The notes under the pieces are model-generated. The model searched no databases, was not told the origin of the DNA, and was given only the letters and a program-made list of their open reading frames with translations. A program made the position numbers and the translations under genes. From contig JAWLHK010000002.1 of NCBI GenBank assembly GCA_041690355.1, positions 283,082 to 347,081 on the forward strand: a stretch of 64,000 bases of DNA. The letters are read 5' to 3'. Position 1 is the first letter of the stretch. Every line of letters begins with the position of its first letter. Origin of the DNA: a bacterium. GTDB lineage: Bacteria; J088; JAWLBW01. Positions 2,718 to 43,074 of the stretch are shown piece by piece.

Positions 2718-2718
2718 A

Positions 2719-4473: not shown

Positions 4474-4493
4474 GGCGGGCTGCACAGCCGCGC

Positions 4494-4710: not shown

Positions 4711-4718
4711 GAAGAACC

Positions 4719-10431: not shown

Positions 10432-10494
10432 AGCGATGGATTCTACCATGGCGCGTCATTTCTGTAACGCGCTACTTGAGCGCCGGGCACCAGT

Positions 10495-10672
10495 CAAGCG
10501 CCGAGCGCCGAGCGCTGAGCGCCAAGGAAACAAGCACATGGGTATTTTCGGTACTTTCCGGTAAATCGTCAATCGTCAGTATGCGCAACCTCTCGCTGTC
10601 GACTCCGGCCCTGCCTTCGTCGGTCAGCTCGAGGCGAACGGGAATGTCACTCGTCACTCGTAACTCGTAACT
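10495..10672. repeat. mosaic intergenic element, forward orientation (AGCGCCG module 10495-10527, AATCGTC units 10563-10579, TCACTCG array 10647-10672)
   Basis: Same module order and internal unique sequence as the reverse-oriented element at 566-745. Confidence 0.8.
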
Positions 10673-10754
10673 TCGCGGAGCGCTCCCCCTTCCCCCCTTG
10701 GCAAGGGGACGCACTACAATAGGGAAGCGTGAACGCCGCCTCGAGGAGTTACCG

Positions 10755-11456
10755 ATGAAGAAATGGAAGACCCTGCCCCCCAACATCCGCCTCCGGCTCG
10801 TCGAACCGGGCGGCCATGCCTACGAATTGCCCCTGCTTCCGGCTGTGCTCGGGGGACCCGGGGCCGACATCGTGCTCGACCACCCGACGGTTTCGGCCGA
10901 ACACGCGCGCATCGAGCTGGCCGGCGGGGTGCTCGTGGTGCGCGACCTGGCTTCGCGCAAGGGGACCTGGGTGAACGGGCGCCGCGTGGGAGACGACCTG
11001 CGCGCGCTCGAACACGGCGACACGCTGGCGCTGGGCTCGGCCCTGCTGCGGGTGGATCTGCAGTCGGTGGCGCGTCAGCAAGGGCGCCGGGCGGTGGCGC
11101 CGCTGGCCGAAACCGTGCCCGCGGGCCACGAGGAGGCTCAGGAGGCGCACCGGTGGAGCACGGCCCGCAGCGTCTGGCTCGTGGTCAACTCCGGCGGCGG
11201 ACAGCAGCGGTTTCTGCTCGATCGCCCCGTGCAGACCATCGGCCGCCTGGCCGACATCCGCATTTCCGATCCCGCCTTGTCGCGGAAGCACCTCCAGGTT
11301 GAGATCCACCCCGATCGCGTCTGTCTGAAAGACCTGGCGAGCGCGAATGGAACCTATGTGGACGGCCACCGCATCTCCTACCTGGAGGTGGATGGAGAAG
11401 TGACGTTTTCGGCCGGCTCGGCCACGTTTCACCTCGTCGCCAACCAGCGCGCCTGA
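10755..11456 (+). CDS. FHA domain-containing protein (two FHA domains)
   Basis: Start at MKKWKTL with gaggag RBS; two FHA-like modules (…GTWVNGRRV… and …GTYVDGHRI…). Confidence 0.8.
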   Translation: MKKWKTLPPNIRLRLVEPGGHAYELPLLPAVLGGPGADIVLDHPTVSAEHARIELAGGVLVVRDLASRKGTWVNGRRVGDDLRALEHGDTLALGSALLRVDLQSVARQQGRRAVAPLAETVPAGHEEAQEAHRWSTARSVWLVVNSGGGQQRFLLDRPVQTIGRLADIRISDPALSRKHLQVEIHPDRVCLKDLASANGTYVDGHRISYLEVDGEVTFSAGSATFHLVANQRA

Positions 11457-15375: not shown

Positions 15376-15450
15376 TGGTGGGCGATGTAGGGATCGAACC
15401 TACGACTTCCACCGTGTGAAGGTGGCACTCTCCCGCTGAGTTAATCGCCC
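15376..15450 (-). tRNA. tRNA-Val (anticodon CAC)
   Basis: Minus-strand read GGGCGATTAACTCAGCGGGAGAGTGCCACCTTCACACGGTGGAAGTCGTAGGTTCGATCCCTACATCGCCCACCA folds as a cloverleaf: 7-bp acceptor stem, D and T arms, anticodon loop TTCACAC, encoded CCA. Confidence 0.9.
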
Positions 15451-15510
15451 GAGTGCATGCAGGAATCGAAAATTGTAGCAGCCCCTTTCGGAATGATCAA
15501 TGGGGCCGCT

Positions 15511-15649
15511 GCCAAGCGCTGAGCACCGAGCGCCCATGAGGAACGAGAAACGTGATCAAGGTTCTTGCCTGGATTCGTCACTCGTCACTCGTAACTCGTA
15601 ACTCGGCACTTGCATAAATCGTCAATCGTCAATCGTAAATTGTAAATTC
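15511..15649. repeat. mosaic intergenic element (AGCGC module 15511-15535, caaggttcttgcc 15557-15569, TCACTCG array 15573-15606, AATCGTC array 15616-15649)
   Basis: Tandem heptamers as in the other elements; the AATCGTC array overlaps the last codons of the 15622..16008 gene. Confidence 0.8.
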
Positions 15650-16008
15650 TCCGGCTCCGCCGCCGCCGCCTCGATGGTTCCGCCCGGGGCCACCAGATAG
15701 AACCCGGCATCCCCGTCACCGTACTCCCCGGACGGATCCGACAGCAGCGGCGCCTGGATGCCGAACCGGTCGCACAGCGCGCGCGCTTCGGCTGGTTCGG
15801 CCGCCACGATCAGATAGACGTTCACGAAATCTTCGAGCAGCCAGTGGGCCACGCGCGCGGCCGCGGCTTCGAGCAGGCGCTCCTGTCTCGCACGGGGAAC
15901 AATGCCGACGACCGTGTGCCCGCGGGCGAAGATTTCGGCCAGATCGATGTTCCCCCCCTTGCTCGAAGCCAGACGGCGGGCGGGAAACGGCGTGCGGACG
16001 GCAATCAT
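15622..16008 (-). CDS. hypothetical protein with degenerate thioredoxin/peroxiredoxin-like segments (no CxxC)
   Basis: 128 aa from MIAVRTP; APLLSDPSGEYGDG and FYLVAPGGTIE resemble peroxiredoxin motifs but no catalytic Cys is present; C-terminal ENLQFTIDD is encoded by the heptamer array. Confidence 0.4.
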   Translation of the reverse strand: MIAVRTPFPARRLASSKGGNIDLAEIFARGHTVVGIVPRARQERLLEAAAARVAHWLLEDFVNVYLIVAAEPAEARALCDRFGIQAPLLSDPSGEYGDGDAGFYLVAPGGTIEAAAAEPENLQFTIDD

Positions 16009-19578: not shown

Positions 19579-20160
19579 TTACCGGGCGGCGATGTGGACG
19601 ACGGAATTGACGCGGCCGAACCCGTCGTCGACTGTCCCGGCCGCGGCCGGATCGGCCAGCCACTGCTCGCCATCGACGACGAACTGATACTGATAGACGC
19701 CCGGCGTCAGCTCAATCGATAATCGCCAGACCCTGCCTTCACGGCGCAGGACGTGGCGCTCCGGATCCCAGCCATTGAACTCACCCACGAGGGCGACCGA
19801 TTCCGCATGCGGGTGGACGAAGACGAACTCCGTCCCCGAAGGGGAACCGGGCAGCGTTCTCGCCGCCAGAACGCCGAGCGCGAAGGCGAGCACCAGGGAC
19901 GCAAAGGCCGCCAGGGGCGCCGCCCGCCGCAAGGTGAGGCGCCACCATGGGGTACCGTGTTCGGCCGCACGCATACGTACGGCGCGCAAGACCCGTTCCT
20001 CGAAACCGGGAGACGGTTCGGCGTCGATGGGCATGGCCGACCAGGTGCGGGCGGCCGCATCGAGCGCCGGCGATGCGGCACGCCGCCGCGCAAACGCGGC
20101 GTGCTCGGCTTCGGTGAGTTCGCCGGCGAGATACTTGGAGAGCAGTTCAGCGTCACTCAT
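19579..20160 (-). CDS. anti-sigma factor with C-terminal CBM48/AMPK-beta-like carbohydrate-binding domain
   Basis: 193 aa; N-terminal anti-sigma-like region, one TM helix, then VALVGEFNGWDPERH...GVYQYQFVVDGEQWLADP resembling the AMPK-beta glycogen-binding domain; overlaps the sigma gene by 8 bp. Confidence 0.65.
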   Translation of the reverse strand: MSDAELLSKYLAGELTEAEHAAFARRRAASPALDAAARTWSAMPIDAEPSPGFEERVLRAVRMRAAEHGTPWWRLTLRRAAPLAAFASLVLAFALGVLAARTLPGSPSGTEFVFVHPHAESVALVGEFNGWDPERHVLRREGRVWRLSIELTPGVYQYQFVVDGEQWLADPAAAGTVDDGFGRVNSVVHIAAR

Positions 20161-20728
20161 ACAGTTTCTCCAGAGCCTTCAACAGCATAGCCCGTCCGCG
20201 CAGCAGGCGCATCTTGACCGCGCTCAGCCCCACGCCCAGGACCGAGGCGATTTCCTGCAGCGGCCGGTCGTCGTAGTGGGCGAGCATGAGCACCTCGCGA
20301 TAGGAATCGGGGAGAGACGCGAGCGCCTTGCCGACCAGCCTGCGCTCTTCGTCAGAGACCATGCGCACGTCTTCCGGTTCGCCGCCCACGGCCGTGTGGA
20401 GCGCGTACTCCAGCGGCCGCTCGTTTCGAACCGCCTGGGCGCGGAAGTAGTCGTGGGCGAGATTCGAGGCGATGCGCATGACCCAACCGTCGAGGTTCAC
20501 CATCGTGTGAAAGGTGGGCAGGCGGGTGAGCGCACGTACGAGCGCTTCCTGCGTCAAGTCCTCGGCGAGCGTAAAGGAACCTGTCATGCGCAGCAGACGC
20601 CTGAAGAGGAGGGTCTTGTAGCGCTCTACGAAGGCCGACTGGGCCGACCGGTCGCCTGCCTTGCACCGTCGGACGAGGTCTTCGTCATCGGCGCTCGGCG
20701 GGCGGTCGGTAGTGGATTCCTTTGTCAC
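20153..20728 (-). CDS. RNA polymerase sigma-70 factor, ECF subfamily
   Basis: 191 aa with sigma region 2 and region 4 features. Confidence 0.9.
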   Translation of the reverse strand: MTKESTTDRPPSADDEDLVRRCKAGDRSAQSAFVERYKTLLFRRLLRMTGSFTLAEDLTQEALVRALTRLPTFHTMVNLDGWVMRIASNLAHDYFRAQAVRNERPLEYALHTAVGGEPEDVRMVSDEERRLVGKALASLPDSYREVLMLAHYDDRPLQEIASVLGVGLSAVKMRLLRGRAMLLKALEKLYE

Positions 20729-27187: not shown

Positions 27188-27280
27188 CCACCTTGTCAAT
27201 TTGGCAAGACTGCCCTAGCCTGAAACGAGAAAGCCGGGCTGCGCACTGGGGCGCGCACCGGTCGGTTTCGGGGAGGAAGC

Positions 27281-27625
27281 ATGCGGAAGATTTTCTGCGC
27301 GCTGGGGTGGTCTTTTCTTCTGGTGGCCTGCGGCACGTTCGACGGGGAACCTCCGGGGGCTTCGGGCCCGGTGTCCCTGACAGAAGTGGACGAGACCGTC
27401 ATCATCAGCCAGTCGGACGATCGATGGAGCCGGTTCGAGCTTCCCGAAGAAGACGGGGAGTGTTCGCAGGACGCCGATTGCGAAATGGGGGGCTGTTCGG
27501 CCGAAGTCTGCACGACGGTCACGACGGCCCCGGAGCTGTTCACGACCTGTAACGAACAGCACCCCGGCAATGGTTTCCGTTGCGGCTGCATCCGGTCGCA
27601 TTGCCGCTGGCAGAAATACGAATGA
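27281..27625 (+). CDS. cysteine-rich lipoprotein (hypothetical)
   Basis: 114 aa; lipobox FLLVAC; eight further Cys in the mature part; gggaggaag RBS. Confidence 0.55.
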   Translation: MRKIFCALGWSFLLVACGTFDGEPPGASGPVSLTEVDETVIISQSDDRWSRFELPEEDGECSQDADCEMGGCSAEVCTTVTTAPELFTTCNEQHPGNGFRCGCIRSHCRWQKYE

Positions 27626-27726
27626 GCGTTCGGGCCGGGCCCGAACGCTCATTCCTGATTCCTGATTCTTGATTCCTGACCGGAACGCCCAGCGACTGCC
27701 GGCTGAAGACTGCCGCCTGAAGACTG
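27620..27726. repeat. mosaic intergenic element (palindromic hairpin 27620-27654, ATTCCTG array 27651-27681, CAGTCTT-family units 27694-27726)
   Basis: Perfect palindrome tgagcgttcgggc/gcccgaacgctca overlapping the stop codon, then attcctg x4, then a duplicated ctgccgNctgaagactg. Confidence 0.75.
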
Positions 27727-30306
27727 TTATTCGTACTCGAGCGCCGAGATGATGTTCGTCTTCGCGGCCTTCCACCCCGGATAGATGCTGGCCAGCACCG
27801 AGACGACGAAGGCGAGCAGAAAGCCGCCGACGACGCTCTCGAGGGGGAACACGAACGGGGTCGTCCAGCCGATGACCTCGCGCAGCATGATCTTCGTGAT
27901 GATGGCCGTGAAGCCGACCCCCGCCAGCACACCGAAGCTTCCCGCCAGAATCCCCATGACCCCCGCCTCGTTCATGACCAGCTTCTGCAGCTGCCGGCGG
28001 GTGAAGCCGATGGCGCGCAGCATCCCCAGCTCGCGGGTGCGGTCGAGCACCGAGACCATGAGCGTGTTGATGATGCCGATGACGGCGATGATGATGGCGA
28101 TGATGTACATGACATCGGTGATGCGGAACGCCTGCTGGACGGCAGTCTGCACCTCGGTCTTGTACTCGGAGTTCGTCTGCAGCACGAGCCGGTAGTTTTT
28201 CCCGAACTTGGCCGTGATCGCATCCCGCACGGCGGCGATGTTGGCCCCCGGCTTGAGGAAGACGTCATAGCTGTCGACGCCGTTGTCCTGGAAGTACTTC
28301 TTGAAGGTCGACCGGTCCATGCCGATGACTCCCTGGTCGCTCATGTAATCCACGCGCACTCCCGCAATCGAGAAGTCGTGCGCTCCGGTGGGGGTCTTGA
28401 GGGAGACCTTGTCGCCGGCATGCAGATTGAACCGGTTCATGAAGTTCTCCGACACGTAGACTGAGTCGTTGCCGGTCACCGCGTCGTAGACCTTCTCCGC
28501 TTCGCCCTCGATCCAGATGCCCGGGCTGTACTTACGGTATTCGGGCATCTGCACGCTGTAGAGCACGATGCCCGTGCCGCCGTAGCTCTGGTTGATCATG
28601 CGGAAGCGGTTGACGTCGGCGACCCCGTCTACCTCGCGCAGAATGTCGTCGCCCAGGGTCTCGGGCATGTCGACGGCGTCGGGGCCGGGCAGGGCCGACG
28701 AGCTGCGGATGACCAGGTCGGCCGTGACCGACTGCTCGAGCCATTCGAGCACCGAGCTCTGAAAGCTGAGCATCGTACCCTTGACCGCGACGGCCAGCGA
28801 AATGCCAATCATGAGCGCGCTCACGGTCACGCTCGTGCGGCCGGGCGTACGCGTGAGGTTGTCGGCACCCAGCTTACCCTCGACGCTGAAGAGCTTGCGC
28901 AGAACCGGGCTGAAGAGGTCGCCGGCCACCACGATGAGAATCGGGGCGAGCAGCGTGAGGGCGAGAAAGCCGAGCATGCTCGATGCCGAACCGACGAAGG
29001 GATTATCGAGGAACTTCTGGGCGTACAGGCCTGCGAACTGCAGGCCGAACAGGGCGATGCCCATGTAGAAGTACTTCATGTACGCCTTGCGCTGGGTCGC
29101 CTCCATGGCCACGGGGCGCATGGCCTCGAGCGGCGACACCGTCGCGGCCTGGCGGGCCGGCGCGATGGCCGAAAGCACCGAGGTGCCGACGCCGAGCGCG
29201 ATGACGATGCCGATATGCAGCGGCGACATGGCGATCTGGTCGATGTTGATCTTGAAGTAAGCCGTGCTGATCGTCTGCGCAACGATGGACGTCAACTCGC
29301 GCGCCAGCAGAAAGCCCGAGAAGCTGCCGATGGTTGCCCCGATGAGGCCGAGCACGCCCGCCTCGACGATGAAGATGCCGCGGATCTGGGCCGCCGTCAC
29401 ACCGAGGGCGCGCATGATGCCGATCTCGCGGCGGCGCTGGGCGACGGCCATCGAGAAGGTGTTGTAGATGAGAAACATGCCGACGAAGAGCGACAGGGCG
29501 CTCATGATCGTGAGGATCTGCTGAAAGCTCTTGAGCATGTTCTCGACCTGCCCCGAGCGCGCGCCCGGATAGCCGATCTCGTACCCTTCGCCCAGCGTCT
29601 CGCGCAGACGCGAGACCACGGCCTCACGCTCTTCGGCGCCGGCGTTCGGGGCCAGGATGATGTCGATCTGATCGAGGCGCCCTTCGCGCTCGAGCACGGT
29701 CATGGCGCTGTAGACGTCCATGATCAGCAGGTTGCCGCCGAAGACCTTCGCGGCCCCTTTTTCTTCGAGAATCGCGCGCACGGTCAGCGTCTTGAGCCCC
29801 GCGCCGGTCACCAGGTTGATCGTGTCGTCCTTCTTGATGCCGTACCGGTTCGCGAGAACGTTGGTCATCAGCACGCTGTCGGGGCTGTTGAGAAACTGCA
29901 GGGCGTCGATTTCTTCGCCCTTGTGCTCGTCATCCTCAGCCGTGAAGGTGCGAAAGTCCTTGTCGGCGAAGGTGTCGACGCCGAGCAGAATGATCGTGTC
30001 TTCGGGGTTCGACTCGAGAAAGGCGCTCGTGCGGATGATCGGCGTGGCCTTGGCAACCCCTTCGACCTGGGTCACCTGCTCGTAGACGGCCTCTTCGAAG
30101 CCGCTGCGGCCGCGGCTGATCTCAATCTGCGCCCGCCCGGCGACGTTGTTGATCATCTGGCGGAAAGAGGTGAGCGTGGCGTCGTTGACGAGCATGATGC
30201 CCACGAAGACGGTGATGCCCAGGGCGATGCCGACGACGGTCAGCCCGGTGCGCAGCAGGTGAAGCGTGAAGTGGCGCAGGCTGACGTTGCGAAGGAAAAA
30301 GAGCAT
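27727..30306 (-). CDS. ABC transporter permease, FtsX-like (MacB/LolCE type)
   Basis: 859 aa with two FtsX-like TM bundles and large periplasmic domains. Confidence 0.9.
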   Translation of the reverse strand: MLFFLRNVSLRHFTLHLLRTGLTVVGIALGITVFVGIMLVNDATLTSFRQMINNVAGRAQIEISRGRSGFEEAVYEQVTQVEGVAKATPIIRTSAFLESNPEDTIILLGVDTFADKDFRTFTAEDDEHKGEEIDALQFLNSPDSVLMTNVLANRYGIKKDDTINLVTGAGLKTLTVRAILEEKGAAKVFGGNLLIMDVYSAMTVLEREGRLDQIDIILAPNAGAEEREAVVSRLRETLGEGYEIGYPGARSGQVENMLKSFQQILTIMSALSLFVGMFLIYNTFSMAVAQRRREIGIMRALGVTAAQIRGIFIVEAGVLGLIGATIGSFSGFLLARELTSIVAQTISTAYFKINIDQIAMSPLHIGIVIALGVGTSVLSAIAPARQAATVSPLEAMRPVAMEATQRKAYMKYFYMGIALFGLQFAGLYAQKFLDNPFVGSASSMLGFLALTLLAPILIVVAGDLFSPVLRKLFSVEGKLGADNLTRTPGRTSVTVSALMIGISLAVAVKGTMLSFQSSVLEWLEQSVTADLVIRSSSALPGPDAVDMPETLGDDILREVDGVADVNRFRMINQSYGGTGIVLYSVQMPEYRKYSPGIWIEGEAEKVYDAVTGNDSVYVSENFMNRFNLHAGDKVSLKTPTGAHDFSIAGVRVDYMSDQGVIGMDRSTFKKYFQDNGVDSYDVFLKPGANIAAVRDAITAKFGKNYRLVLQTNSEYKTEVQTAVQQAFRITDVMYIIAIIIAVIGIINTLMVSVLDRTRELGMLRAIGFTRRQLQKLVMNEAGVMGILAGSFGVLAGVGFTAIITKIMLREVIGWTTPFVFPLESVVGGFLLAFVVSVLASIYPGWKAAKTNIISALEYE

Positions 30307-31090: not shown

Positions 31091-31350
31091 GAGCCTGCCC
31101 TTTGCGGAAAGTTGGCGGAAATCCGGAAGGGCCATTATACATGGATACCCGCCCTTAATCAACCGTGCGTTTAATTGGCGGTACGCTCCAATTCAAACAA
31201 GGTTTTCACGGAGGGGAGCTGCTGTCGGGCCGCTGGGGGGAGGCCCGTGGGGGACGAGGCATCCGCGTATCGTTAAAACGCTGTTTTGAGCCATTTTCCG
31301 CATTGACGCCGCCCAGGGGTTCCGGGTAGGGTTTGACAGGAGTTTCTACC

Positions 31351-33078
31351 ATGTCCCGTTTTTCCCTTCGGTTCCTCGCCGCGGCCGCTCTCTTAAGCGG
31401 ATGCGCTTCACAGACCTCTGTCGCCCGCCTCCGGGCCCTCCCGCCCCGCGAGAGCATCGCGGAGCACTGCCGCGAGCAGATCGGCGCGCCCCGTATCGAA
31501 CGCGTCGGCGAGCGCATCTACGCGGCGCTTGGCTACGATCTGGCCAACACGATCCTCATCCGCACCGACGACGGCAACGTCATCGTCGATCCCGGCATGA
31601 GCCCGGCCCGGGCCGCGCGCGTCCGCGAAGATCTGCTGGCCGCGGCGCCGGGACCCGTGCGCGCCGTCGTCTACACGCACAGCCATATCGATCACATCGG
31701 CGGTGCCAGCGTGTGGGTCGAGGAGGGGACCGAGATCTGGGCGACCGACGCCTTTCTGCCGCACATGCTGAAGCAGTACGGCCGGTTTCAGCGCGCCGAG
31801 GCCATGCGCGGGCAGGGGCAGTTCGGCCGTCACGTTCCCCTCGAAGCGCTCCCGTGCTCGGCCATCGGGCGGCGGGTCGACATCGACGCCGCTCTCGAGT
31901 CGGGGGTACGCGTGCCGACCCGCACCTTCTCGGGGCAGGCGTCGTTCACGATCGGCGGCGTTCGCTTCGAGCTTCGCGAGGCGCACGGCGAGACGCACGA
32001 TCAGCTCTTCGTCTGGCTTCCGGGCGAGCGGATCCTGCTGCCCGGCGACAACTTCTATCACGCTTTTCCGAACCTCTACACGATTCGCGGCACCAGCGCA
32101 CGGCCCGTCGACGTGTGGATCGAAAGCCTCGACGCCATGCGCCGCCTCGCGCCCATGGCCCTGGTACCCTCGCACACGCGGCCGGTGGTCGGCGGTGACT
32201 TGGTGGCCGGGGCGCTTCGCGATTACCGTGACGGCATCCAGTGGCTGCGCGACGACGTCGTGCGCCGGGCCAACGCGGGGATGACCGTCGAGGAGATCGT
32301 TTCTTCGGTCGGCCTTCCCCCGCATCTTGCGCAACGCCCCTTTCTCCAGGAACTCTACGGGCAGGTCGACTGGTCGGCGCGCGCCATCTACGACAACGAA
32401 CTCGGCTGGTTCGACGGCGACCCGCTGGCGCTTTATCCGCTCGCGGCCACGGAGACGGCGCGGCGCACGGTGCAGCTCATGGGCGGGAGCGAGAAGGTGC
32501 TCGCCGCTGCCCGCGAAGCGCGCGCGCAGGGAGATCCGCGTTGGGCGGCTCACCTGCTCGGCCTGCTGCGCGACGCCCGCGCAGGCGATCCCGAGATCGT
32601 CCGCGAAGAGCTCGCGCGGAGCCTCGAGGCCGTGGCCGCCGGCGTGGGCAATACGAACGGGCGCGCCTATCTGTTGGAATCGTCGGTCGCGCTCACGGAA
32701 ACCAGGAGACCGCTCCCGCGTGTGCAGCTCGATGATGCGCTGCTGGAGGGAATTCCCGTCAAGGTATTCATGACGCTCATGAGCGGCCGCCTGATCCCCG
32801 AACGGTCGGCGGCCGTCCACGAATCGGTCGTGTTCCGCTTCGGCGAGCAGCAGTTCGTGCTTACCATCCGTCGCGGCGTGGCTGAGCTGGTGGAAGGGGA
32901 ACCCCTCCCCGGCACCCCCGAGCCGCTGGCGGTCGTGCATACCGATCCGTTGACGTGGAAGCGGCTGGCGCTGCAGATCGACAGCCCGGCCGCGGCCCTG
33001 CTGTCGGGGCGGCTGCGCATCGAGGGGAGCCAGACGGGCTTTCTGGCCTTCACGAACCGCTTCGACCGCGAACTCTGA
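31351..33078 (+). CDS. metallo-beta-lactamase-fold alkyl/aryl sulfatase-like lipoprotein
   Basis: Lipobox LLSGC; MBL motif THSHIDHIGG; C-terminal SCP2-like region; aggag RBS before ATG 31351. Confidence 0.8.
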   Translation: MSRFSLRFLAAAALLSGCASQTSVARLRALPPRESIAEHCREQIGAPRIERVGERIYAALGYDLANTILIRTDDGNVIVDPGMSPARAARVREDLLAAAPGPVRAVVYTHSHIDHIGGASVWVEEGTEIWATDAFLPHMLKQYGRFQRAEAMRGQGQFGRHVPLEALPCSAIGRRVDIDAALESGVRVPTRTFSGQASFTIGGVRFELREAHGETHDQLFVWLPGERILLPGDNFYHAFPNLYTIRGTSARPVDVWIESLDAMRRLAPMALVPSHTRPVVGGDLVAGALRDYRDGIQWLRDDVVRRANAGMTVEEIVSSVGLPPHLAQRPFLQELYGQVDWSARAIYDNELGWFDGDPLALYPLAATETARRTVQLMGGSEKVLAAAREARAQGDPRWAAHLLGLLRDARAGDPEIVREELARSLEAVAAGVGNTNGRAYLLESSVALTETRRPLPRVQLDDALLEGIPVKVFMTLMSGRLIPERSAAVHESVVFRFGEQQFVLTIRRGVAELVEGEPLPGTPEPLAVVHTDPLTWKRLALQIDSPAAALLSGRLRIEGSQTGFLAFTNRFDREL

Positions 33079-33081
33079 AAA

Positions 33082-33332
33082 CAGTCTTCAGGCGTCAGTC
33101 TCCGGTCCTCAGTCGGAATTCGTCACTCGACACTCGATACCCGTCACTGAGTATTCGTCACTCGTCACTCGTCACTCACACAAAGCGCCAAGCGCTGAGC
33201 ACCGAGTGCTGACGAGGCAAGGGCGAAGTGTTTCAAGGTTCTTGCCGGAAACGCGTCACTCGTCACTCGTAACTGAACAAGGTTCTTGCCGCTCAATCGT
33301 CAATCGTCAATCGTAAATCGTCAATCGACGAG
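33082..33332. repeat. largest mosaic intergenic element (CAGTCTT-family 33082-33114, TCACTCG array 33117-33180, AGCGC module 33184-33217, caaggttcttgcc 33234-33246 and 33278-33290, TCACTCG 33251-33275, AATCGTC array 33293-33332)
   Basis: All module types in one spacer, beginning 4 bp after the sulfatase stop and ending next to a TATAAT box upstream of rseP. Confidence 0.8.
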
Positions 33333-33357
33333 TGGGGCGTAGTATAATGAGCGAATC

Positions 33358-34692
33358 ATGGGAATTCTGACATTCATCCTCGTGCTGGGGATTCTGATCT
33401 TCGTTCACGAGTTCGGCCACTTCTATTTCGCGAAACGCGCGGGCGTCGGCGTCGAACGTTTCTCCATCGGCTTCGGCCCCAAACTTTTCGGCTTCACGCG
33501 GGGCGAAACGGAGTACCGCGTCGCCGCCATTCCGCTCGGCGGCTACGTGAAGATGGTCGGCGACAATCCCGACGAGGCCCGGCAGGGGACCGAGAAGGAA
33601 TTTCTGAGCCGCCCCGTGCGCGACCGGCTGCCCATCGTGCTGGCGGGCCCCATCGTGAACCTGGCGCTCGCGTTCGTGCTCATGCCGCTGGTCTACCTGC
33701 TCGGCGTGCAGGTACCCGCCTTCGTTCAGGAAAAGCCGGTCATCGGGTATGTCGAGCCGGGGAGCCCGGCCGAGCGCGCCGGCCTGCAGACGGGGGACGA
33801 AATCGTCGCCATCAACGGCAAGCCGATGCCCGCCTGGGAAGACGTGCTCGCCTCGACCATGGCCGAGCCCGGCAAGACGATTCAGGTGCGGCTGACCCGC
33901 GGCGGCTCCAGCCTGCAGGTTCCCGTGCATCTCGAAACCGCCGAGAGCGGGGCCGCGGCCTTCGGCGTGCAGCCCCCGGCCGTGCCCGTCGTCGGGCAGG
34001 TCAATCCCGGATCTCCCGCCGCCCTGGCCGGCCTGCAGCCGGGCGACCGGATCACCAGCCTGAACGGGGTGCCGGTCGACCACTGGGTGGCCATGGCCGA
34101 ACGCATCCAGTCGCTGGGGACGCAGCCGATTGAAGTCGGCTTCGCGCGCGACGGGGGCGAGCAGCGCGTCATGCTCACCCCCGAGCGCATGGCCGACGCC
34201 GACCGGGTCATCATCGGCATCCAGCGCAGCGAAGACCTGGTCGAGGTGCAATACGGCTTCGTCGACGCTGTGCGCGAAGGTTCGCGCCGCGTCGTACAGA
34301 TGACGACCCAGACCTTCGACATCCTGGGCAAGCTGCTGACCGGACAGCTGGGGGTGAAGACCCTGGGCGGCCCGATCCGCATCGCGCAGGTGACGTCGGC
34401 GGCGGCCGAAAGCGGCCTCTCCGACGTGCTGTCGCTGATGGCGTTTCTCTCGTTGCAGCTCGGCATTCTGAACCTGCTGCCGTTTCCGGTGCTCGACGGC
34501 GGGCACGTGCTCTTCATGAGCATCGAGGCCATCCGCCGCCGTCCGCTGTCGCGGCGCGCGCTCGAAATTTCGACGCAGGTCGGCTTCGTGCTGCTGCTCG
34601 TGCTCATGGTCGTCGTGACCAAGAACGACATCATGCACGCCTGGGGTCCGCAGATCGAGCGCATGTTCGACACGGTCCGTAATCTGTTCTGA
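33358..34692 (+). CDS. rseP: RIP metalloprotease RseP (site-2 protease)
   Basis: 444 aa; HEFGH zinc motif in TM1, PDZ region, C-terminal TM helices. Confidence 0.9.
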   Translation: MGILTFILVLGILIFVHEFGHFYFAKRAGVGVERFSIGFGPKLFGFTRGETEYRVAAIPLGGYVKMVGDNPDEARQGTEKEFLSRPVRDRLPIVLAGPIVNLALAFVLMPLVYLLGVQVPAFVQEKPVIGYVEPGSPAERAGLQTGDEIVAINGKPMPAWEDVLASTMAEPGKTIQVRLTRGGSSLQVPVHLETAESGAAAFGVQPPAVPVVGQVNPGSPAALAGLQPGDRITSLNGVPVDHWVAMAERIQSLGTQPIEVGFARDGGEQRVMLTPERMADADRVIIGIQRSEDLVEVQYGFVDAVREGSRRVVQMTTQTFDILGKLLTGQLGVKTLGGPIRIAQVTSAAAESGLSDVLSLMAFLSLQLGILNLLPFPVLDGGHVLFMSIEAIRRRPLSRRALEISTQVGFVLLLVLMVVVTKNDIMHAWGPQIERMFDTVRNLF

Positions 34693-34694
34693 CC

Positions 34695-35387
34695 GTGTTT
34701 CTGCTGGCCATCGATACCAGCTCGCCCGCCTTCTCCTGCGCGCTGCTCGAAGACGGGGCCGAGCGCGCCGCGCTGCACGTGCGCGGGCGAATGGCGGCCG
34801 AGGTCGACCAGTTGCTGACCCTCGATCGCATGCTGCAGTCGGCCGGCGTCGCCATTGCCGAGGTCGACGCCTTTGCGTGCACCATCGGGCCGGGAAGCTT
34901 CACCGGACTTCGGGTGGGTCTTTCGCTCCTCAAGGGGCTTGCGCTGCCGGGGGCGCGGCCGGTGTTCGGCATCTCGACACTCGAGGCGCTGGCGGCGGCG
35001 GTCGGTTACCCCCCGGGCCCGGTCGTCGCCTGCCTCGATGCCCGGCGCCATGAGGTCTACGCCGCTGCCTGGTCAGACGGGGGCGTCGTGGTGCCCGAGG
35101 GGGTGTATGCGGTCGAAGCGCTGCGGGAACGCGTCCGCGGCCTGGGGGGTGAGCCGCTCTGGGTTGGCGGCGGCGCCCGCGTCTGCGGCGAAGCGCTGGG
35201 GCTTGCGCCCGGTCGCCTGGCCCCGGAGTGGTTCGACGCCCCGCGCGCCGAGATCGTCGCCCGCCTCGCCTGGCACGCCTGGGAACGGGGCGAGCGGCCG
35301 GCCCCCGACCTCCTCGTCCCCAACTACCTGCGGGCTTCGGAAGCGGAACGGAAAAGGCGTCCGGCTGGCGACGGGACCGGCTCGTAA
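34695..35387 (+). CDS. tsaB: tRNA threonylcarbamoyladenosine biosynthesis protein TsaB
   Basis: 230 aa; LAIDTSS start and GPGSFTGLRVG motif; GTG start. Confidence 0.85.
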   Translation: MFLLAIDTSSPAFSCALLEDGAERAALHVRGRMAAEVDQLLTLDRMLQSAGVAIAEVDAFACTIGPGSFTGLRVGLSLLKGLALPGARPVFGISTLEALAAAVGYPPGPVVACLDARRHEVYAAAWSDGGVVVPEGVYAVEALRERVRGLGGEPLWVGGGARVCGEALGLAPGRLAPEWFDAPRAEIVARLAWHAWERGERPAPDLLVPNYLRASEAERKRRPAGDGTGS

Positions 35388-37209: not shown

Positions 37210-38231
37210 GCAGCCCGCAGGCCAACGACGTCCGTCCCGAGGGTGATGCCCTCGATACCGCATGGGAAGAACCGCTGCGTCCGGTTCGCCTTGACGACTA
37301 CATCGGCCAGGCCGAAATGAAGGCCAACCTGAAAGTCGGCATCCAGGCGGCGCGCCAGCGTGGCGAACCCCTGGGGCACGCGCTGTTCTTCGGCCCGCCG
37401 GGGCTGGGTAAGACGACGCTCGCGCACATCATCGCCACCGAGATGGGGGGAGGCCTGCGCTCGACCGCGGGCCCCGTGCTGTTGCGCCAGGGAGATCTGG
37501 CGGGCATCCTGACATCGCTCGAAGCCAACGACATTCTCTTCATCGACGAGATTCACCGCCTGCCGCGGGCCGTCGAAGAAATCCTCTACTCGGCCATGGA
37601 GGACTTCAAGCTCGACATCCTGCTCGGCGCGGGGCCTGGCGCCCAGAGCGTGAAGATTGACCTGCCCCGCTTCACCCTCGTCGGCGCCACGACCCGCGCG
37701 GGCTCGCTTTCGACGCCGCTGTACGACCGCTTCACCTTTCACGAACACCTGAATTTCTACACGCCGGTCGACCTGCAGCAGATCATCGAACGGGCGGCCC
37801 GGCTCAATCGCATTCCCATCGAACCCGAAGGGAGCCTGGCGCTCGCGGGCCGTTCGCGGGGCACCCCGCGCATCGCGCTGCGCCTGCTCAGCCGGGTGCG
37901 CGACTTTGCAGAAGTGGGCGACGGTGTGATAGATGGTAAGACGGCCTGCGAGGCTCTCGATCGGCTGCACGTCGACGAGGCAGGGCTGAATATGATGGAC
38001 CAGAAGATTCTCCTGACGATACTCGAGAAGTTCAGCGGGGGACCGGTGGGGCTTGAAACGCTGTCGGCGGCCGTGGGCGAAGAAAAAGAGACCATCGAGT
38101 TCACCATCGAACCGTACCTGCTGCAGCAGGGCTTTCTTGCGCGTACGCCGCGCGGCCGCGTGCTGACGGAGCATGCCTACCGTCATTTCGGACGGAGCAT
38201 TCCTTCGTCGCAGAGGAAACTTTTCCCGTGA
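37206..38231 (+). CDS. ruvB: Holliday junction branch migration ATPase RuvB
   Basis: Walker [10 protein letters not shown], Walker B FIDEIHR, full RuvB length. Confidence 0.95.
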
Positions 38232-40645
38232 ACCTTACGTCCTACCTCCTGCGCCAGACGCCTGTCGAGCCGACCCTTCTCGAGCAGATACTCGCGTTCA
38301 CGCAGGACAATCCCCAGGTCATCGCCGGCGCGGGCGTGCTGCTCGTGGTGCTTCTGGTGCTGCGCAAGTTCATCGGCTCCGATGCGGGCCCCAAACCGGG
38401 CAAGCTCCCCCGCAATCCGAAACAGGCCCGCCGGTGGGCCGAGCTGTCGATTCAGGCCAACAAGTTTCGCCAGGCGGGCGACTTCTACCTCATCGCCAAC
38501 GAATACGAAGCGGCTTACAACGCGTTTGCGCGCGCCGCCGCTTACGACGAGGCCGCCGAGGCGGCGCTTGCGCTCGGTGCCAAGGAAAAAGCGGCGATGA
38601 TGCTCGAAAAGGCGAAGAAGTATGTCGCCGCCGCGAAGCTGTATCAGCAGTCGGGACGCTACAACGACGCCGGCGAGGTCTTCGCGCGTGCCGGTAACGA
38701 TACCCTTGCCGCCGAAGCCTTCGAGGCGGCTGGCAACTGGGGCAAGGGGGCCCTGCACTTCGAGCGCGCCCGCAACCACGTCAAGGCGGCCGACCTCTAT
38801 GTGAAGGCGCGGGATTTCAAGAAGGCCGGCGCCCTGTACGAAGCTGCCTACCGCGAGGCGCGGCAGCAGTCGAAGGAGAACCCCGCGCGGACGCGCCAGG
38901 CCGGCGAGTTCGCGCTCAAGGCTGCGGGCTGCTTTGAGAAGATCAAGGAAGTGAAACCGGCCATCGCCGTTCTGAGCGACGCCGGCTTCTTCGAAAAGGC
39001 GGCCGGCCTGCTGCGCTCGACCAACGATCTCGAGGGGGCCGCCGACCTCTACGTCAAGGCCAACCTCCCGCTGCAGGCCGCCGATCTCTACGTGCAGATG
39101 GGCGACCCCGAGCGCGCCGCCCGCCTCAAGGGCGATGTCCTGCGTTCGGAGGGGAACGAGCTGGCCGCCGCCGATAATTACCGGCAGGCCGGTGAGTATC
39201 TGGAAGCGGCCGAAATCTTCCGCCGGCACAACCATTACGCCGAAGCCGCCTCGATGTATCTGCAGGTGGGCGATTACCTGCAGGCAGGCGAAATGTTCCT
39301 GCGCGCCAAGGACCCACGCAAGGCGGCCGAGGCCTGGGAGCGCGCGGGTGACTATCGCCGGGCCGCCGAGGTCTACCAGCGGCTCGGCGACGGCCGCAAG
39401 CAGAGCGAACTGCTCGAGCGCGCCGGCGAGTCGTTCGAAGCCGGGCTGAATTACTACCGTCTGAAGCTCCCCGACGAGGCCGTGCGGGTGCTTTCGTCGA
39501 TTCCCGGCGAGCATCCCTCGTTCCGCAAGGCCTGCAACCTGCTCGGCGACATCTATCGCGAAAAGGGAGACGCGGCGCAAGCCGTCAAGAAGTATCAGCA
39601 GGCGGTCGAGGGGCAGAAGGTCAGTCAGGCCAACCTGCATCCCTATTACAATCTGGCGCGCGTGCTCGAAGAGTCGGGCGACCCGCGCCTCGCCTTCGCC
39701 CTGTTTCGCAAGATTCAGCAGGAAGACAGCCAGTTTCAGGACGTGGCGGCGCGCGTCAACACGCTCAAGTCGCGCGTCGAAGAGGCCGATCGCAAAGAGC
39801 GCGAGAAGACGGCGCCCCCCGATACGAGCACGGCCACGCCCGTGGTCGCGCGCGCCAAGAAGCGTTATACGCTGTTGTCGGAGATCGGCCGCGGCGGCAT
39901 GGGAATCGTCTACAAGGCGCACGATCAGGTGCTCGACCGTGTCGTCGCCTTCAAGGTGCTCCCCTCCGATCTGCGCAACAATGACGTGGCGGTGAAGAAC
40001 TTCCTGCGCGAAGCCAAGGCCGCCGCCGGGCTGAACCACCCGAACATCGTCATCGTCTACGACGCCGGCGAAGAGGGTGACAACTATTATATCGCCATGG
40101 AGTACATCGAGGGGCGTACGCTGCGCGACATCGTCGTCGCCGACGGCAAGATTCCGCTGCCCGGGCTCATGGTCATCACGGCCCAGCTCTGCCGGGCCAT
40201 GGAGTACGCGCACGGCCGCAGCGTGGTTCATCGCGACATCAAGGGCTCGAACATCATGTGGACCGACGCCAAGCTCGTCAAGGTCATGGATTTCGGGCTC
40301 GCCAAGGTCATTCAGGAAGTCGTCAACTTTCAGACCGTGGTCGGCGGCACCCCGCACTACATGGCGCCCGAACAGATCCTGGGCGAAGAAATCGACCGCC
40401 GCGCCGACCTGTATTCGCTGGGGGTCACGCTCTACGAGTGCGCCACGGGCACCGTCCCGTTTCCCAAGGGCGACGTCGGCTACCATCACATCCACACCCC
40501 TGCACCCGACCCGCGCGAGTTCAACAAGGATGTACCCGAGGCCTATGCCAAGCTGCTTCTGAAGTGCCTCGTGAAGGATCCGGCGGCACGCTATCAGAGC
40601 GCCGCCGAAATCTACGAGGACCTCAAGGAAATTCGGGTGCGATAA
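38228..40645 (+). CDS. membrane-anchored Ser/Thr protein kinase with TPR-like helical repeat region
   Basis: 805 aa; N-terminal TM; about 450 aa of Ala-rich repeats; C-terminal kinase domain ([29 protein letters not shown]); GTG start. Confidence 0.85.
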
Positions 40646-43074
40646 TGGACACGCAGGCCGTGCTCGAGCACCTGCAGCGCTTACCGCCCTGGGCCTGGGG
40701 CGCGGCCCTGCTGGGACTGGTGGCGCTGGTCTTCGCCGTGCGCGTTCTGAAGCGCTACGGCCGGCTGCGCCGTTACCCCGGTCTTCAGCCGCGGTTTCGA
40801 TCGGCGGCCGGGGCGCGCGTGCTCGCCGCGGCCGAGGCCTCCGAAAAGCGCGGTGCGTTCGAAGAGGCGGGAGATCTGTTTCTCCAGCTAGAACTCCACG
40901 ACGGCGCGCGCCGCAACTATCATCGCGCCCAGACCGGGTTGAAGCTGGCCGGCTCTTATCTCGCCACCGGGCAGAAGCTCGAGGCCGCCACGTGGTTCGA
41001 ACGTGCGGGGCGAGTCGACGAGGCGCTCGAACTGTACCTCGAAGTGGGCCAGATCGCCCATGCGGCACGTGCGGCGCAGTCGGCCGGTGACTTTCTGCAG
41101 GCGGCCCAGCTCTTCGAGGGGGCGGGCGATTTCGCCGCCGCGGCTCCCCTTTACCGGCGCATTCAGGACATTCCCAAAGCGTTCGCCTGCTATGAGAAAG
41201 CCGGCGAGCAGGGGGCGGCGGCGGCGCTGGGCGTCGAACACGTCGGCCAGATGCTCGCCGGGCTCCGGCAGGGGAAAAAGGCGAGCGCCGCCGACGTGCG
41301 CGAACTCGAGTCGCTCGCCGAGCGCGCGGCGGCGATCCTGGCAGAGTCGGAGAAGGCGAGCGACTGGGAGCAGGGGCTGCAGCTCTATCTCTTCGCGAAG
41401 CGGTGGGCGAGCGCGGGGCACCTTTTCCGCAAACTCGGCAAGCTCGAAAAGGCCGTCGAGCAGTTTCTGCGCGCCGGCGACAAACGCAATGCCGCCGACG
41501 TGCTCGACGAACTCGGCCGCCCCCGCGAGAGCGCGAAGCTCAAAGGCGAAGACTTTCTCGCCCGCGACATGCTGCGCGAGGCGGCCGCGCAGTTCGAGAC
41601 CGCCGAACTCTGGGAGCAGGCCGCCGAAGCGCTCGTCAAACTGGGCGACAACCTGAAGGCCGCCCTTCTGTTTCGCCGCATGAACATGCCGCTGCGCACC
41701 GCAGAGCTGCTGGAAAAGGAAGGGCAGTACGGCGAGGCGGCCGCCGCCTACCGCGAGGCGGGCGACGACGAACGCGCCCTGCACTGCTACGAGCAGTTGA
41801 GCGACTGGGGCGCGTATACGGAACTGCTCGAAGCGAAGGAGCGGTGGTACGAGGCCGGCCTGAATTACCTCAAGCGGGGGCTGAGCGACAAGGCAATCAA
41901 GGCCCTGCAGCGGGTCGACGAGCACGATCCGCGCTACGGGGCCGCGGCCCTCGCGCTCGGCGACCTCTTCGCCGAGAAGGGCATGCATGGCCTCGCGAAA
42001 GAAAAGTACCTGGCCCTCATCGGTGACGAGCGCATCCAGCGCCGGAACATCGAGGCCTATTACAAGCTGGCGCTCGCCTACGAAGCCAATCAGGAGCTCA
42101 ACCAGGCGCTCCAGACGTTCGAGAAGATCCTCGGCCTCGACTTTCACTTCAAGGACGTCGGCCAGCGCATTCACGATCTGAAGGAACGCATCGCCCTGCG
42201 CACCCCGTTCATGACGCCGGCGCAGAGCGGGGGCCAGCCGGTCGATCCCTTCGCCGCCACGCTCATGCAGCCGGCCCAGGCGGCCAAACGCCGGTATGAA
42301 ATCGTCTCTGAACTCGGCCGCGGCGGGATGGGTGTCGTCTACAAGGCGCGCGATACGGTACTCGACCGGGTCGTGGCCCTCAAGGTGCTCCCCCCCATGT
42401 TCCGCCAGAACGAGCTGGCCCTGCGCAACTTCTTTCGCGAAGCCAAGAGCGCGGCGGCACTTCAGCACCCCAATATCGTCACCGTCTACGATACGGGTGA
42501 AGAAGCGGGCAGTCCCTATATTACAATGGAATTCGTAGAGGGGCGCGATCTCAAGCAGATCGTGTCGGAGTCGGGGGCGTTTGCGCTGGGGCCGCTTCTG
42601 CTGGTGTTCGGGCAGATGTGCCAGGCGCTCACCTATGCGCACGAGCGATCCATCGTGCACCGGGATATCAAACCGAGCAACGTGCTGTGGACCAAGGACA
42701 AGCAGGTCAAGGTAACCGACTTCGGCCTCGCCCGCGCCCTGAACCAGGGTGCGAACACCATGACCACGACCGGCGGCACCCCCTACTACATGAGCCCCGA
42801 GCAGACGCTGGGCAAGAACCTCGATCACCGCACCGACATCTACTCGCTGGGGGTCATGATGTTCGAGCTGGCGACGGCGCGCCTGCCGTTCGAGGAGGGG
42901 GACATCGGGTACCACCACGTTCACTCCGAGGCGCCGAACCCGTCGGTGCACCGCAACGACCTGCCCCCGGCCATGAGCCGTATCATCCTGCGCTGCCTGG
43001 CCAAGAAGGCCGACGAGCGCTATGCGACGGCCGCCGACGTTTTTCGCGAGCTGCGCGAGTCCTTCGGCAGCTGA
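40645..43074 (+). CDS. membrane-anchored Ser/Thr protein kinase with TPR-like helical repeat region (paralog)
   Basis: 809 aa from MDTQAVL; same architecture (LGRGGMGVVYKA, HRDIKPSN, DFGLARA); ATG overlaps the upstream stop. Confidence 0.85.
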   Translation: MDTQAVLEHLQRLPPWAWGAALLGLVALVFAVRVLKRYGRLRRYPGLQPRFRSAAGARVLAAAEASEKRGAFEEAGDLFLQLELHDGARRNYHRAQTGLKLAGSYLATGQKLEAATWFERAGRVDEALELYLEVGQIAHAARAAQSAGDFLQAAQLFEGAGDFAAAAPLYRRIQDIPKAFACYEKAGEQGAAAALGVEHVGQMLAGLRQGKKASAADVRELESLAERAAAILAESEKASDWEQGLQLYLFAKRWASAGHLFRKLGKLEKAVEQFLRAGDKRNAADVLDELGRPRESAKLKGEDFLARDMLREAAAQFETAELWEQAAEALVKLGDNLKAALLFRRMNMPLRTAELLEKEGQYGEAAAAYREAGDDERALHCYEQLSDWGAYTELLEAKERWYEAGLNYLKRGLSDKAIKALQRVDEHDPRYGAAALALGDLFAEKGMHGLAKEKYLALIGDERIQRRNIEAYYKLALAYEANQELNQALQTFEKILGLDFHFKDVGQRIHDLKERIALRTPFMTPAQSGGQPVDPFAATLMQPAQAAKRRYEIVSELGRGGMGVVYKARDTVLDRVVALKVLPPMFRQNELALRNFFREAKSAAALQHPNIVTVYDTGEEAGSPYITMEFVEGRDLKQIVSESGAFALGPLLLVFGQMCQALTYAHERSIVHRDIKPSNVLWTKDKQVKVTDFGLARALNQGANTMTTTGGTPYYMSPEQTLGKNLDHRTDIYSLGVMMFELATARLPFEEGDIGYHHVHSEAPNPSVHRNDLPPAMSRIILRCLAKKADERYATAADVFRELRESFGS

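Follow-up and report, generated by a model that had tools for sequence, protein, structure and literature searches.

A mosaic of heptanucleotide microsatellites, probably lineage-specific and with little role in expression, upstream of the rseP start in an uncultured bacterium

Repetitive extragenic palindromic (REP) units are ~35-nt palindromes mobilised by REP-associated tyrosine (RAYT) transposases, pneumococcal BOX modules are 45-59 nt long, and leaderless mRNAs with a -10 box abutting the start codon are common in Actinomycetota and Deinococcus. Here we describe a ~250-nt intergenic element (positions 33,082 to 33,332) directly upstream of rseP in a 64,000-nt stretch of bacterial DNA (contig JAWLHK010000002.1, positions 283,082 to 347,081), which as a whole we call the window. 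Nearly the whole rseP spacer is repeat when stepped through by 7 nt, and tandem heptanucleotides have been described before in several settings. Units of 7 nt are over-represented, as the commonest long class, among the long simple sequence repeats (LSSRs) of many bacterial genomes, and slippage has been proposed as their source (Mrazek et al. 2007, as relayed in PMC4679880 and PMC4692102). For Calothrix PCC 7601, three heptanucleotides in tandem, known as short tandemly repeated repetitive (STRR) sequences, are cited (in PMC4692102), and the GGGGA(T/C)T and GGGAATC arrays of Nostoc and Xanthomonas differ even among closely related strains and are at times paired in inverted orientation (PMC4692102). 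No mechanism of transfer is evident for the TAACTGA repeats that marine Beggiatoaceae, Cyanobacteria and Bacteroidetes have in common (PMC4679880), and the 'class 3' sites of Geobacter metallireducens, five tandem heptamers of the form MTYCTGA in inverted pairs, were read, untested, as regulator sites (PMC2700814). In Haemophilus influenzae, the phase-variable (ATCTTTC)n upstream of hmw1A comprises at least 11 perfect units and is transcribed within the 5' untranslated region (5'UTR), where it folds into an RNase III hairpin (PMC12721329). Heptamer repeats at recF and recO are the subject of a Nostoc preprint (bioRxiv 10.1101/2022.06.06.494920).

In our reading, which we regard as probable, the element belongs to the LSSR/STRR kind: heptanucleotide microsatellites make up a mosaic that is dispersed and lineage-specific and that has little or no part in the expression of rseP. 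As in LSSRs and STRR sequences, its units of 7 nt stand head to tail, they are confined to non-coding DNA, several unit types are adjacent, and there is gain, loss and length change between relatives; what is distinctive within that kind is the fixed multi-module order and the density. The periodicity is strong. When the spacer is shifted against itself by 7 bases, its self-identity is 0.533, against 0.249 +/- 0.027 (maximum 0.35) in 2000 dinucleotide-preserving shuffles of the same spacer (z = 10.4). Shifts of 14, 21 and 28 are likewise raised while adjacent shifts are not, and in a repeat search the TCGTCAC-type units of the spacer are spaced at multiples of 7.

The modules of the spacer, its neighbouring genes and the other arrays of the window are listed in Table 1. 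An earlier note on this DNA, made from the letters alone, had described the element as holding all module types in one spacer; the modules that it listed were located where it had placed them, but this spacer is without the ATTCCTG module of 4494 and 27651. The CAGTCTT-type S module is indeed the reverse complement of the one at 27694-27726 (27 of 33 positions identical, 82%), and both S modules begin 0-3 nt past a stop codon, in sense to the gene that they follow, the second one following a macB-like gene on the minus strand. The upstream gene, which had been labelled a sulfatase, is more exactly a metallo-beta-lactamase-fold alkyl sulfatase by Pfam and no classical sulfatase. Within the spacer, the G module aligns with G modules at 4550, 10497, 15515 and 728 (minus strand). 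K1 with T2 (33234-33272) and K2 with A (33278-33316) form a 44-nt tandem duplicate with 82% identity (Tandem Repeats Finder, TRF, score 63), and from the first half to the second every unit copy has switched from TCACTCG to TCAATCG, which is the expected product of slippage plus homogenisation within an array. Thirteen unique bases, GACGAGTGGGGCG, separate the A module from the promoter-like core TAGTATAAT.

Table 1. Features of the rseP spacer, its neighbours and the other heptamer arrays in the window (gene calls are heuristic).
Feature	Positions	Strand	Remarks
Upstream gene, metallo-beta-lactamase-fold alkyl sulfatase	31333-33078	+	stop TGA 33076-33078; Pfam Lactamase_B 3.4e-27, Alkyl_sulf_dimr 2.6e-34
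rseP spacer	33079-33357		279 nt, 53% G+C; whole window 65% G+C
S module	33082-33116	+	14-nt unit CAGTCTTCAGGCGT x2.5; begins 3 nt past the alkyl-sulfatase stop codon
T1 module	33120-33177	+	~8 TCGTCAC-type heptamers, three perfect (33155-33175); TRF period 7, 8.3 copies
G module	33184-33211	+	AGCGCCA AGCGCTG AGCACCG AGTGCTG; four AGCGCC-type units
Linker including K1	33212-33252	+	22-nt linker, then K1 CAAGGTTCTTGCC at 33234-33246; aligns with linkers of four other composites
T2 module	33253-33273	+	GCGTCAC TCGTCAC TCGTAAC; same 7-nt register as T1, 84 nt apart
K2	33278-33290	+	CAAGGTTCTTGCC, same 13-mer as K1
A module	33295-33329	+	AATCGTC x5; -63 to -29 relative to ATG
Junction of array and -10 box	33327-33339	+	GACGAGTG, inverted T unit plus G-run; inverted repeat with 33251-33264, 14 nt, 86% complementary
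Extended -10-like promoter core	33340-33348	+	TAGTATAAT; TATAAT 33343-33348; then 9 nt; ATG at 33358
rseP, M50-family site-2 protease with two PDZ domains	33358-34692	+	Pfam Peptidase_M50 7e-74; starts MGILTF as in orthologues
tsaB-like gene	34695-35387		directly after rseP
Composite G-linker-A-core-T	566-745	-	upstream of putatively leaderless ruvX; TCGTCAC x5
Inverted pair of AATCGTC-type arrays	2718-2827		directly past bipA stop codon; 116-nt hairpin, -43.7 kcal/mol, z = -5.5
Composite ATTCCTG x5.9 - AGCGCCG x4 - linker - AATCGTC x4	4494-4641	+	
Composite G-linker-A-core-T	10493-10674	+	between divergent GH92 gene and FHA gene; TCGTCAC x3.4
Composite G-linker-K-T-A	15515-15647	+	antisense to both neighbours: tRNA-Val and minus-strand open reading frame
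ATTCCTG x4 (+) and S module (-)	27651-27726		between convergent genes, beside a perfect hairpin

The element belongs to a family. Arrays of at least three units are confined to seven intergenic spacers of the window, and within genes we found only three weak two-copy matches, with two mismatches. Five unit families are present (AATCGTC, TCGTCAC, ATTCCTG, AGCGCCG and CAGTCTT), up to four of them in one spacer, and the repeats amount to ~1.1 kb of the 64 kb, or ~10% of the window's non-coding DNA. In five spacers an alignable composite recurs with the order (AGCGCCG)n, linker (AGGAA..CAAGG..GGTTCTTGCC), (TCGTCAC and/or AATCGTC)n. The minus-strand composite at 566-745 is 81% identical to 10470-10700 on the plus strand over ~190 nt, and the genes downstream of the two, ruvX and a gene for a forkhead-associated (FHA) domain protein, are unrelated. 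These two copies differ in the number of TCGTCAC units (5 against 3.4) and have in common a 64-nt non-repetitive core (GCGCAACCTCTCGCTGTCGACTCCGGC.CTGCCTTCGTC..; 610-675 on the minus strand, 10582-10645 on the plus strand), which folds no better than its shuffles. Arrays lie on either strand and in divergent, convergent, co-directional and gene-tRNA spacers, and both neighbours of the composite at 15515-15647 lie antisense to it, so the family has no fixed orientation to genes. An open reading frame (ORF) on the minus strand, 15622-16008, ends within the same array: its last nine codons (..ENLQFTIDD) and its TGA are array read from the opposite strand. Judged from this overlap, the array has apparently overwritten or extended the 3' end of the ORF.

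Set beside the systems described above, the window's arrays share with LSSRs, as these are relayed in the citing papers, tandem heptanucleotides that are mostly intergenic, many per genome and patchy across lineages; in the window, by contrast, units of different types follow one another in an order that recurs, with unique linkers between them, and dispersal is of the composite as a whole. The cyanobacterial and Xanthomonas heptamers, as far as they are covered in PMC4692102, are similar in comprising various intergenic arrays, some of them inverted pairs, with length and sequence varying between relatives, but the window has other units (not G-quadruplex forming), is from another phylum and keeps a fixed module order. 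With the TAACTGA repeats the likeness is that of one heptamer found across distant phyla and beside genes without a Shine-Dalgarno sequence. The TAACTGA sets, however, mostly stand a few nt from the start codon in forward orientation (PMC4679880), whereas the rseP array ends 28 nt before the ATG with the promoter core between and its family is unfixed in orientation. A single TAACTGA is present at 33271-33277 of the rseP spacer. The Geobacter MTYCTGA is one base away from the (A)TTCCTGA reading of the window's ATTCCTG module, and both genomic settings have paired inverted arrays in spacers, the Geobacter genome being rich in multicopy intergenic sequences (PMC2700814); the ATTCCTG module is, however, no part of the rseP spacer. 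Dimers of the AATCGTC, TCGTCAC, ATTCCTG, AGCGCCG and CAGTCTT units were not found in the literature that we searched.

To the arrays of the window, orthologous spacers of relatives offer a direct comparison. Two sister contigs, L272 and L273 (BipA 77% identical), have the same gene order, with ruvX divergent from bipA, then a flavin adenine dinucleotide (FAD)-dependent gene, TetR and FA_hydroxylase. Their ruvX-bipA and bipA-FAD spacers measure 213 and 57/19 nt (L272/L273), as compared with 343 and 145 nt in the window, and the region from the FAD gene to FA_hydroxylase has 25+117 nt around TetR, as compared with 245 nt. No heptamer array is present in the corresponding spacers of L272 and L273, and the excess in the window is the array. 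Next to the FAD gene, ~30 nt (CGATAACTnCGnGCC...) are kept in the sisters and the window, downstream of the inserted inverted arrays. The TetR-family gene that the sisters have in the region between the FAD gene and the next gene (L272 13523-14336, L273 3565-4298) is missing in the window, where the repeat-filled 245-nt spacer 4474-4718 is in its place. The rseP element is absent in the same way: none of five relatives with an orthologous rseP (L001, L002 and L124-126) has upstream arrays, and the upstream neighbours differ, which argues for a lineage-specific insertion in the window. At rseP the repeats halt 13 nt short of the conserved -10 box, much as they do in the bipA-FAD spacer. The arrays, as compared across these loci, appear to be recent, lineage-specific insertions that halt short of functional signals.

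The relatives also bear on the promoter of rseP. The earlier note had proposed comparing their upstream regions; in this comparison a -10 core is shared, and the heptamer arrays are in none of the five. In these relatives (RseP ~67-73% identical), in the order L001, L002, L124, L125 and L126, (C)ATAGTATAAT, GATATAAT or (C)ATAGTATACT ends 6, 7, 6, 6 and 9 nt ahead of the MGILTF start, and the window's own box (which starts at 33340, one position before the 33341 given in the earlier note) stands 9 nt ahead of the ATG, as had been claimed. All six loci have a TATAAT/TATACT-type -10 core near the ATG. None of the six has a Shine-Dalgarno sequence, and the relatives have no common -35 hexamer at any shared spacing. 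The gene upstream varies among loci (an ABC ATPase, a rhomboid protease or others) and the remaining spacer DNA is unrelated; the alkyl-sulfatase gene is absent from the rseP neighbourhood in all five relatives, and their upstream DNA has no 7-base periodicity (self-identity 0.19-0.26). A leaderless rseP mRNA, or one with a leader of at most 3 nt, made from its own -35-independent promoter that would be ancestral and older than the repeats, is well supported by this comparison, because the -10 core and its spacing are kept in all loci, there is no Shine-Dalgarno sequence and no -35 is shared. The rseP message probably starts at or next to the start codon, and the earlier suggestion of a promoter adjoining the rseP start with a near-leaderless mRNA is borne out to that extent by the 6-9 nt distance.

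The same layout is found elsewhere in the window. A -10 box abuts the ATG (6-9 nt) at five genes, ruvX 517 (minus strand), DoxX 5949, GH92 10431 (minus strand), coaBC 16161 and rseP 33358, while fewer than one is estimated by chance at the window's base composition. For ruvX and GH92, the layout is conserved in the syntenic contigs L272 and L273. This suggests that leaderless mRNAs may be common in this lineage. Several ORFs called from their first start, such as those at 16008 and 10449, probably extend too far. Like known leaderless promoters, the rseP locus has its TATAAT-like box 6-9 nt ahead of the ATG and is without a Shine-Dalgarno sequence; it differs in that the layout is seen here through conservation, in a deep uncultured Myxococcota-like lineage.

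The earlier note placed the repeat array in the -35 position of this promoter, and in this it was right as to location: the last AATCGTC units cover 33320-33325. On this reading the array would stand in for a -35 box, serve as an UP-like element or offer a row of activator sites, and would set rseP expression. In line with this, the A module spans the -35 position, TCGTCA at a 19-nt spacing matches TTGACA at 4 of 6 positions, and composites end 10-36 nt upstream of the promoter-like sites of the FA_hydroxylase gene, tRNA-Val and ruvX; the Nostoc preprint on heptamer repeats and promoter binding (bioRxiv 10.1101/2022.06.06.494920) points the same way. However, at the canonical 17-nt spacing only 2 of 6 positions match, with at most 2 of 6 at 16-18 nt, and a consensus scan of the rseP spacer gave 0 canonical sigma-70 promoter pairs. 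The five orthologous promoters share the -10 core and spacing with unrelated DNA at -35 and upstream, so that relatives keep the core without arrays, and identical modules lie at 3' ends and antisense elsewhere. We therefore find a promoter role very unlikely, and the array is probably not part of the rseP promoter.

A phase-variable switch, in which slippage of the array toggles rseP expression, is extremely unlikely. Heptamer repeats upstream of hmw1A act in this way (PMC12721329), and the paralogous copies in the window differ in unit number. The likeness to hmw1A is that a simple sequence repeat of heptamers precedes a gene, but the rseP array appears to share none of the other hmw1A features (PMC12721329). 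The arrays are short and imperfect, with at most five near-perfect units against at least 11 in hmw, and they lie upstream of the -10 box, neither between the promoter boxes nor in a 5'UTR. Given the periodicity of the array and its fixed 3' end, a different copy number would leave the DNA at -35 as it is, and the gain or loss of units does not alter the -35 to -10 geometry across the fixed 13-nt junction, which argues against such a switch. In addition, rseP is a housekeeping protease, and the same arrays flank many unrelated genes.

At the RNA level, the sense and antisense folds of the rseP spacer are no better than those of shuffles (z = -0.7 and -1.3), and the linker alignment of the composites gives -1.1 kcal/mol with no covariation and no conserved RNA structure. 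A search of the window with Rfam gave tRNA-Val as the only match at the gathering threshold, and in 32950-33450 nothing better than E = 0.35. From these results we rejected a structured RNA or known RNA family in the rseP spacer. The composition of the sense strand is more suggestive. The ratio of C to G is 1.6-2.2 over the first 130 nt of the spacer, and in S+T1 it reaches 2.2 in 78-nt windows, within the top 1% of the 64-kb window; in composition only, this is like a Rho utilisation (rut) site, with at least ~78 nt of C>G, poorly structured RNA past a stop codon.

On this composition rests the best of the rival explanations, in which the arrays are the 3' tail of the alkyl-sulfatase mRNA, a C-rich, G-poor and unstructured tract that loads Rho and ends the transcript ahead of the leaderless rseP promoter; read-through would leave an internal rseP AUG that is untranslatable for want of a Shine-Dalgarno sequence. 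The rseP spacer has no intrinsic terminator (0 sites with a GC-rich hairpin and T-run in 32900-33500), its sense RNA folds like shuffles, and both S modules abut stop codons in sense orientation. Inverted array pairs elsewhere form long hairpins at gene ends, some with A and T runs like those of bidirectional terminators. The composites at 4494, 10497 and 15515, however, have a C/G of only ~1.0-1.15, the one at 15515 is antisense to both of its neighbours, and a crude survey of 120 listed loci in other genomes gave no orientation bias. Relatives with a co-directional or divergent upstream gene also cope without arrays. Taken together, such an insulating role is unlikely.

No terminal inverted repeats or target-site duplications were found at the boundaries of the two 81%-identical copies, as a miniature inverted-repeat transposable element (MITE) would have, and none of 30 window proteins scanned with Pfam is a RAYT (IS200/IS605-like) or other transposase. 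The Escherichia coli REPs and the bacterial interspersed mosaic elements (BIMEs) that they compose, as well as the pneumococcal BOX elements, are similar in their modular build, in their dispersal among intergenic sites, in the varying number of modules inside them and in an effect on neighbours that is weak or depends on context; unlike these, the window's modules are microsatellites, and the rseP spacer is without a palindromic unit. It has direct arrays only, its best inverted repeat being 14 nt with 86% complementarity, as compared with palindromes of ~20-40 nt in REP/BIME. Among the classes tried, the element does not fit a REP/BIME, a MITE, a contingency repeat, a canonical sigma-70 promoter, an intrinsic terminator and an Rfam family.

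The units are not restricted to this lineage. At least 120 stretches of species-representative genomes contain the exact 20-mer of (AATCGTC)x3, and among the matches listed the carriers come from at least 12 phyla and include cultured strains such as Terrimonas ferruginea DSM 30193 and Mariniflexile soesokkakense KCTC 32427; the groups represented there are Bacteroidota, Acidobacteriota, Chloroflexota, Planctomycetota, Verrucomicrobiota, Gemmatimonadota, Nitrospirota, Nitrospinota, NC10, Ignavibacteria, Proteobacteria, Bacillota and Actinomycetota. In viral contigs, 20-mers of AATCGTC, TCGTCAC and ATTCCTG were found at 41, 26 and 64 loci, against 2, 1, 11, 2 and 1 loci for five composition-matched permuted heptamers. 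The favoured units are thus 2-60 times commoner, a comparison resting on a small sample of five controls, and the excess is large despite the small control set. Many viral contigs of ~45 kb (L208-L271) carry an ATTCCTG array of ~6 units at what is apparently one conserved locus; they may be one phage family, which would inflate the count of 64. Among the matches listed, the AATCGTC arrays of other genomes have a median of four units, and 26% have an inverted partner within 100 nt. Such inverted pairs surround a loop of 10-45 nt (for example L029 82-153; also L014, L015, L030, L041 and L121), and in some of them an A-run and a T-run border the pair, which then resembles a bidirectional intrinsic terminator with a stem of heptamers. 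No strand preference of AATCGTC relative to flanking ORFs was apparent in the 120 listed loci with crude ORF calls, where 41 arrays fell 'inside' sense ORFs merely because that repeat strand has no stop codons. Other modules co-occur with AATCGTC in other phyla in few cases (L015, L027, L037, L090), not clearly above chance. Two general properties of the favoured units were tried and rejected: they are not favoured for containing TGA, which places stops in three frames, as the TGA-containing control ATCATCG gave only 2 matches, and an AATC core is not general beyond the AATCGTC family (none of 27 arrays in control-selected loci has it).

This recurrence is the starting point of two further readings. 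An abundant protein that binds DNA or RNA over 7 nt (a nucleoid protein, a cold-shock-domain protein or another 'global regulator') could use the arrays as its sites in a genome-wide regulatory or architectural network. The restricted vocabulary of units common to phyla, their over-representation against permuted heptamers and the fairly uniform array length of ~4 units are consistent with this, as are the paired five-heptamer MTYCTGA sites of G. metallireducens, read as global regulator sites (PMC2700814), and the proposal of cold-shock, S1 and CsrA proteins as binders of the TAACTGA repeats (PMC4679880). Against it, no candidate protein was identified, the sister genomes keep the genes and promoters and have no arrays in the orthologous spacers, and the neighbours are without a functional theme (ruvX, bipA, the FAD enzyme, GH92, the FHA protein, tRNA-Val, macB and rseP); we judge it very improbable. 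A broader version, which we hold to be distinctly unlikely, takes the AATCGTC, TCGTCAC and ATTCCTG arrays as a pan-bacterial class of cis-elements that serve as modular, length-adjustable transcription boundaries, with a conserved factor of 7-nt footprint to read them or a common mechanism to make them. If this were true, inverted arrays would act as long hairpins and direct arrays as Rho-loading or protein-coated tracts, and the rseP spacer would be a stacked multi-module insulator shielding a leaderless promoter from upstream transcription.

Returning to the microsatellite mosaic that we prefer, the ~250-nt element would be one copy of a non-coding mosaic family made up of microsatellite blocks of 2-8 units. 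We infer that the arrays lengthen and shorten through replication slippage, and a point mutation in one unit may spread along the array, as in the change from TCACTCG to TCAATCG. Blocks would duplicate locally, as the 44-nt unit of K and array may have done, and whole composites of (AGCGCCG)n, linker and (TCGTCAC/AATCGTC)n would be copied into other spacers. The repeats would occupy tolerated non-coding space and halt at promoter cores, ribosome sites and coding sequence, the halting signal at rseP presumably being the ancestral -35-independent core TAGTATAAT, with an mRNA start at or within ~3 nt of the AUG. The array would then be filler upstream of the promoter, at most a low-GC, unstructured and C-rich spacer that parts alkyl-sulfatase transcription from the rseP promoter, and any effect on rseP would be at most indirect.

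Several observations weigh against this account. Neutral slippage leaves the recurrence of the same units in at least 12 phyla unexplained, and the short and fairly uniform arrays (median four units) could reflect a constraint on length. Module order is preserved across five copies, with no terminal inverted repeats or target duplications to account for mobility. Heptamer repeats near promoters or start codons alter expression in Nostoc (bioRxiv 10.1101/2022.06.06.494920) and at hmw1A of Haemophilus (PMC12721329). Finally, two metagenome scans, with a 24-mer of the rseP junction and with the K-motif/array junction, gave no copies from the same species (the nearest RseP is 73% identical), and the instability of copy number would be read from paralogues only.

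One relative has repeats of its own. L002 (RseP 69% identical) bears heptamer arrays at 4686-4791 and 8396-8426 with the GC-rich units CGCCGGT, CCGACGT and CCGACGA, and TCGTCGG, the reverse complement of the last, is two mismatches from TCGTCAC. Richness in heptamers, as far as these arrays indicate, may be older than the particular units.

Other spacers of the window hold features worth recording. The inverted arrays at 2718-2827 after bipA may be a terminator built from repeats. A Heavy_Cys-like ORF (27211-27625) converges with the macB-like gene (27727-30306, minus strand), and a perfect hairpin with a 16-bp stem (27620-27654) lies between the two, bordered by ATTCCTG x4 to one side and by the S module to the other. 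From the minus strand, the array at 27651 reads as CAGGAAU repeats that resemble the GGA motifs bound by CsrA. The tRNA-Val(CAC) gene (15376-15500, minus strand) has a promoter-like TTGATC-17-TGnTACAAT at 15500-15472, adjoining the composite at 15515-15647. Degenerate heptamers (TTGACTC TTGACCC CTGACTC TCGACTC) lie at 4678-4705, downstream of a promoter-like TTGACG-17-TATTTT and within the putative FA_hydroxylase 5'UTR.

As for the organism, the window encodes two adjacent tetratricopeptide repeat (TPR) proteins with C-terminal Ser/Thr kinase domains (38228-43074), an extracytoplasmic function (ECF) sigma factor (20153-20728, minus strand) and the FHA protein (10698-11456). The TPR and Ser/Thr kinase proteins together with the ECF sigma factor and FHA protein suggest a Myxococcota-like signalling repertoire and a deep lineage; identity to proteins of named metagenome-assembled genomes is 66% for BipA and 49% for RseP.

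The locus offers a comparative case in which, in a deep uncultured lineage, a promoter without need of a -35 would give leaderless mRNA for a housekeeping intramembrane protease, as for several further genes, which matters for the annotation of gene starts and promoters in such genomes. The extent to which heptamer microsatellites can colonise a genome is also apparent from the window, with spacers inflated two- to seven-fold and the adjacent signals left untouched. The presence of identical units in a dozen phyla, cultured strains included, may provide an experimental handle on the role of heptamer repeats, a question that has stood since the first cyanobacterial report.

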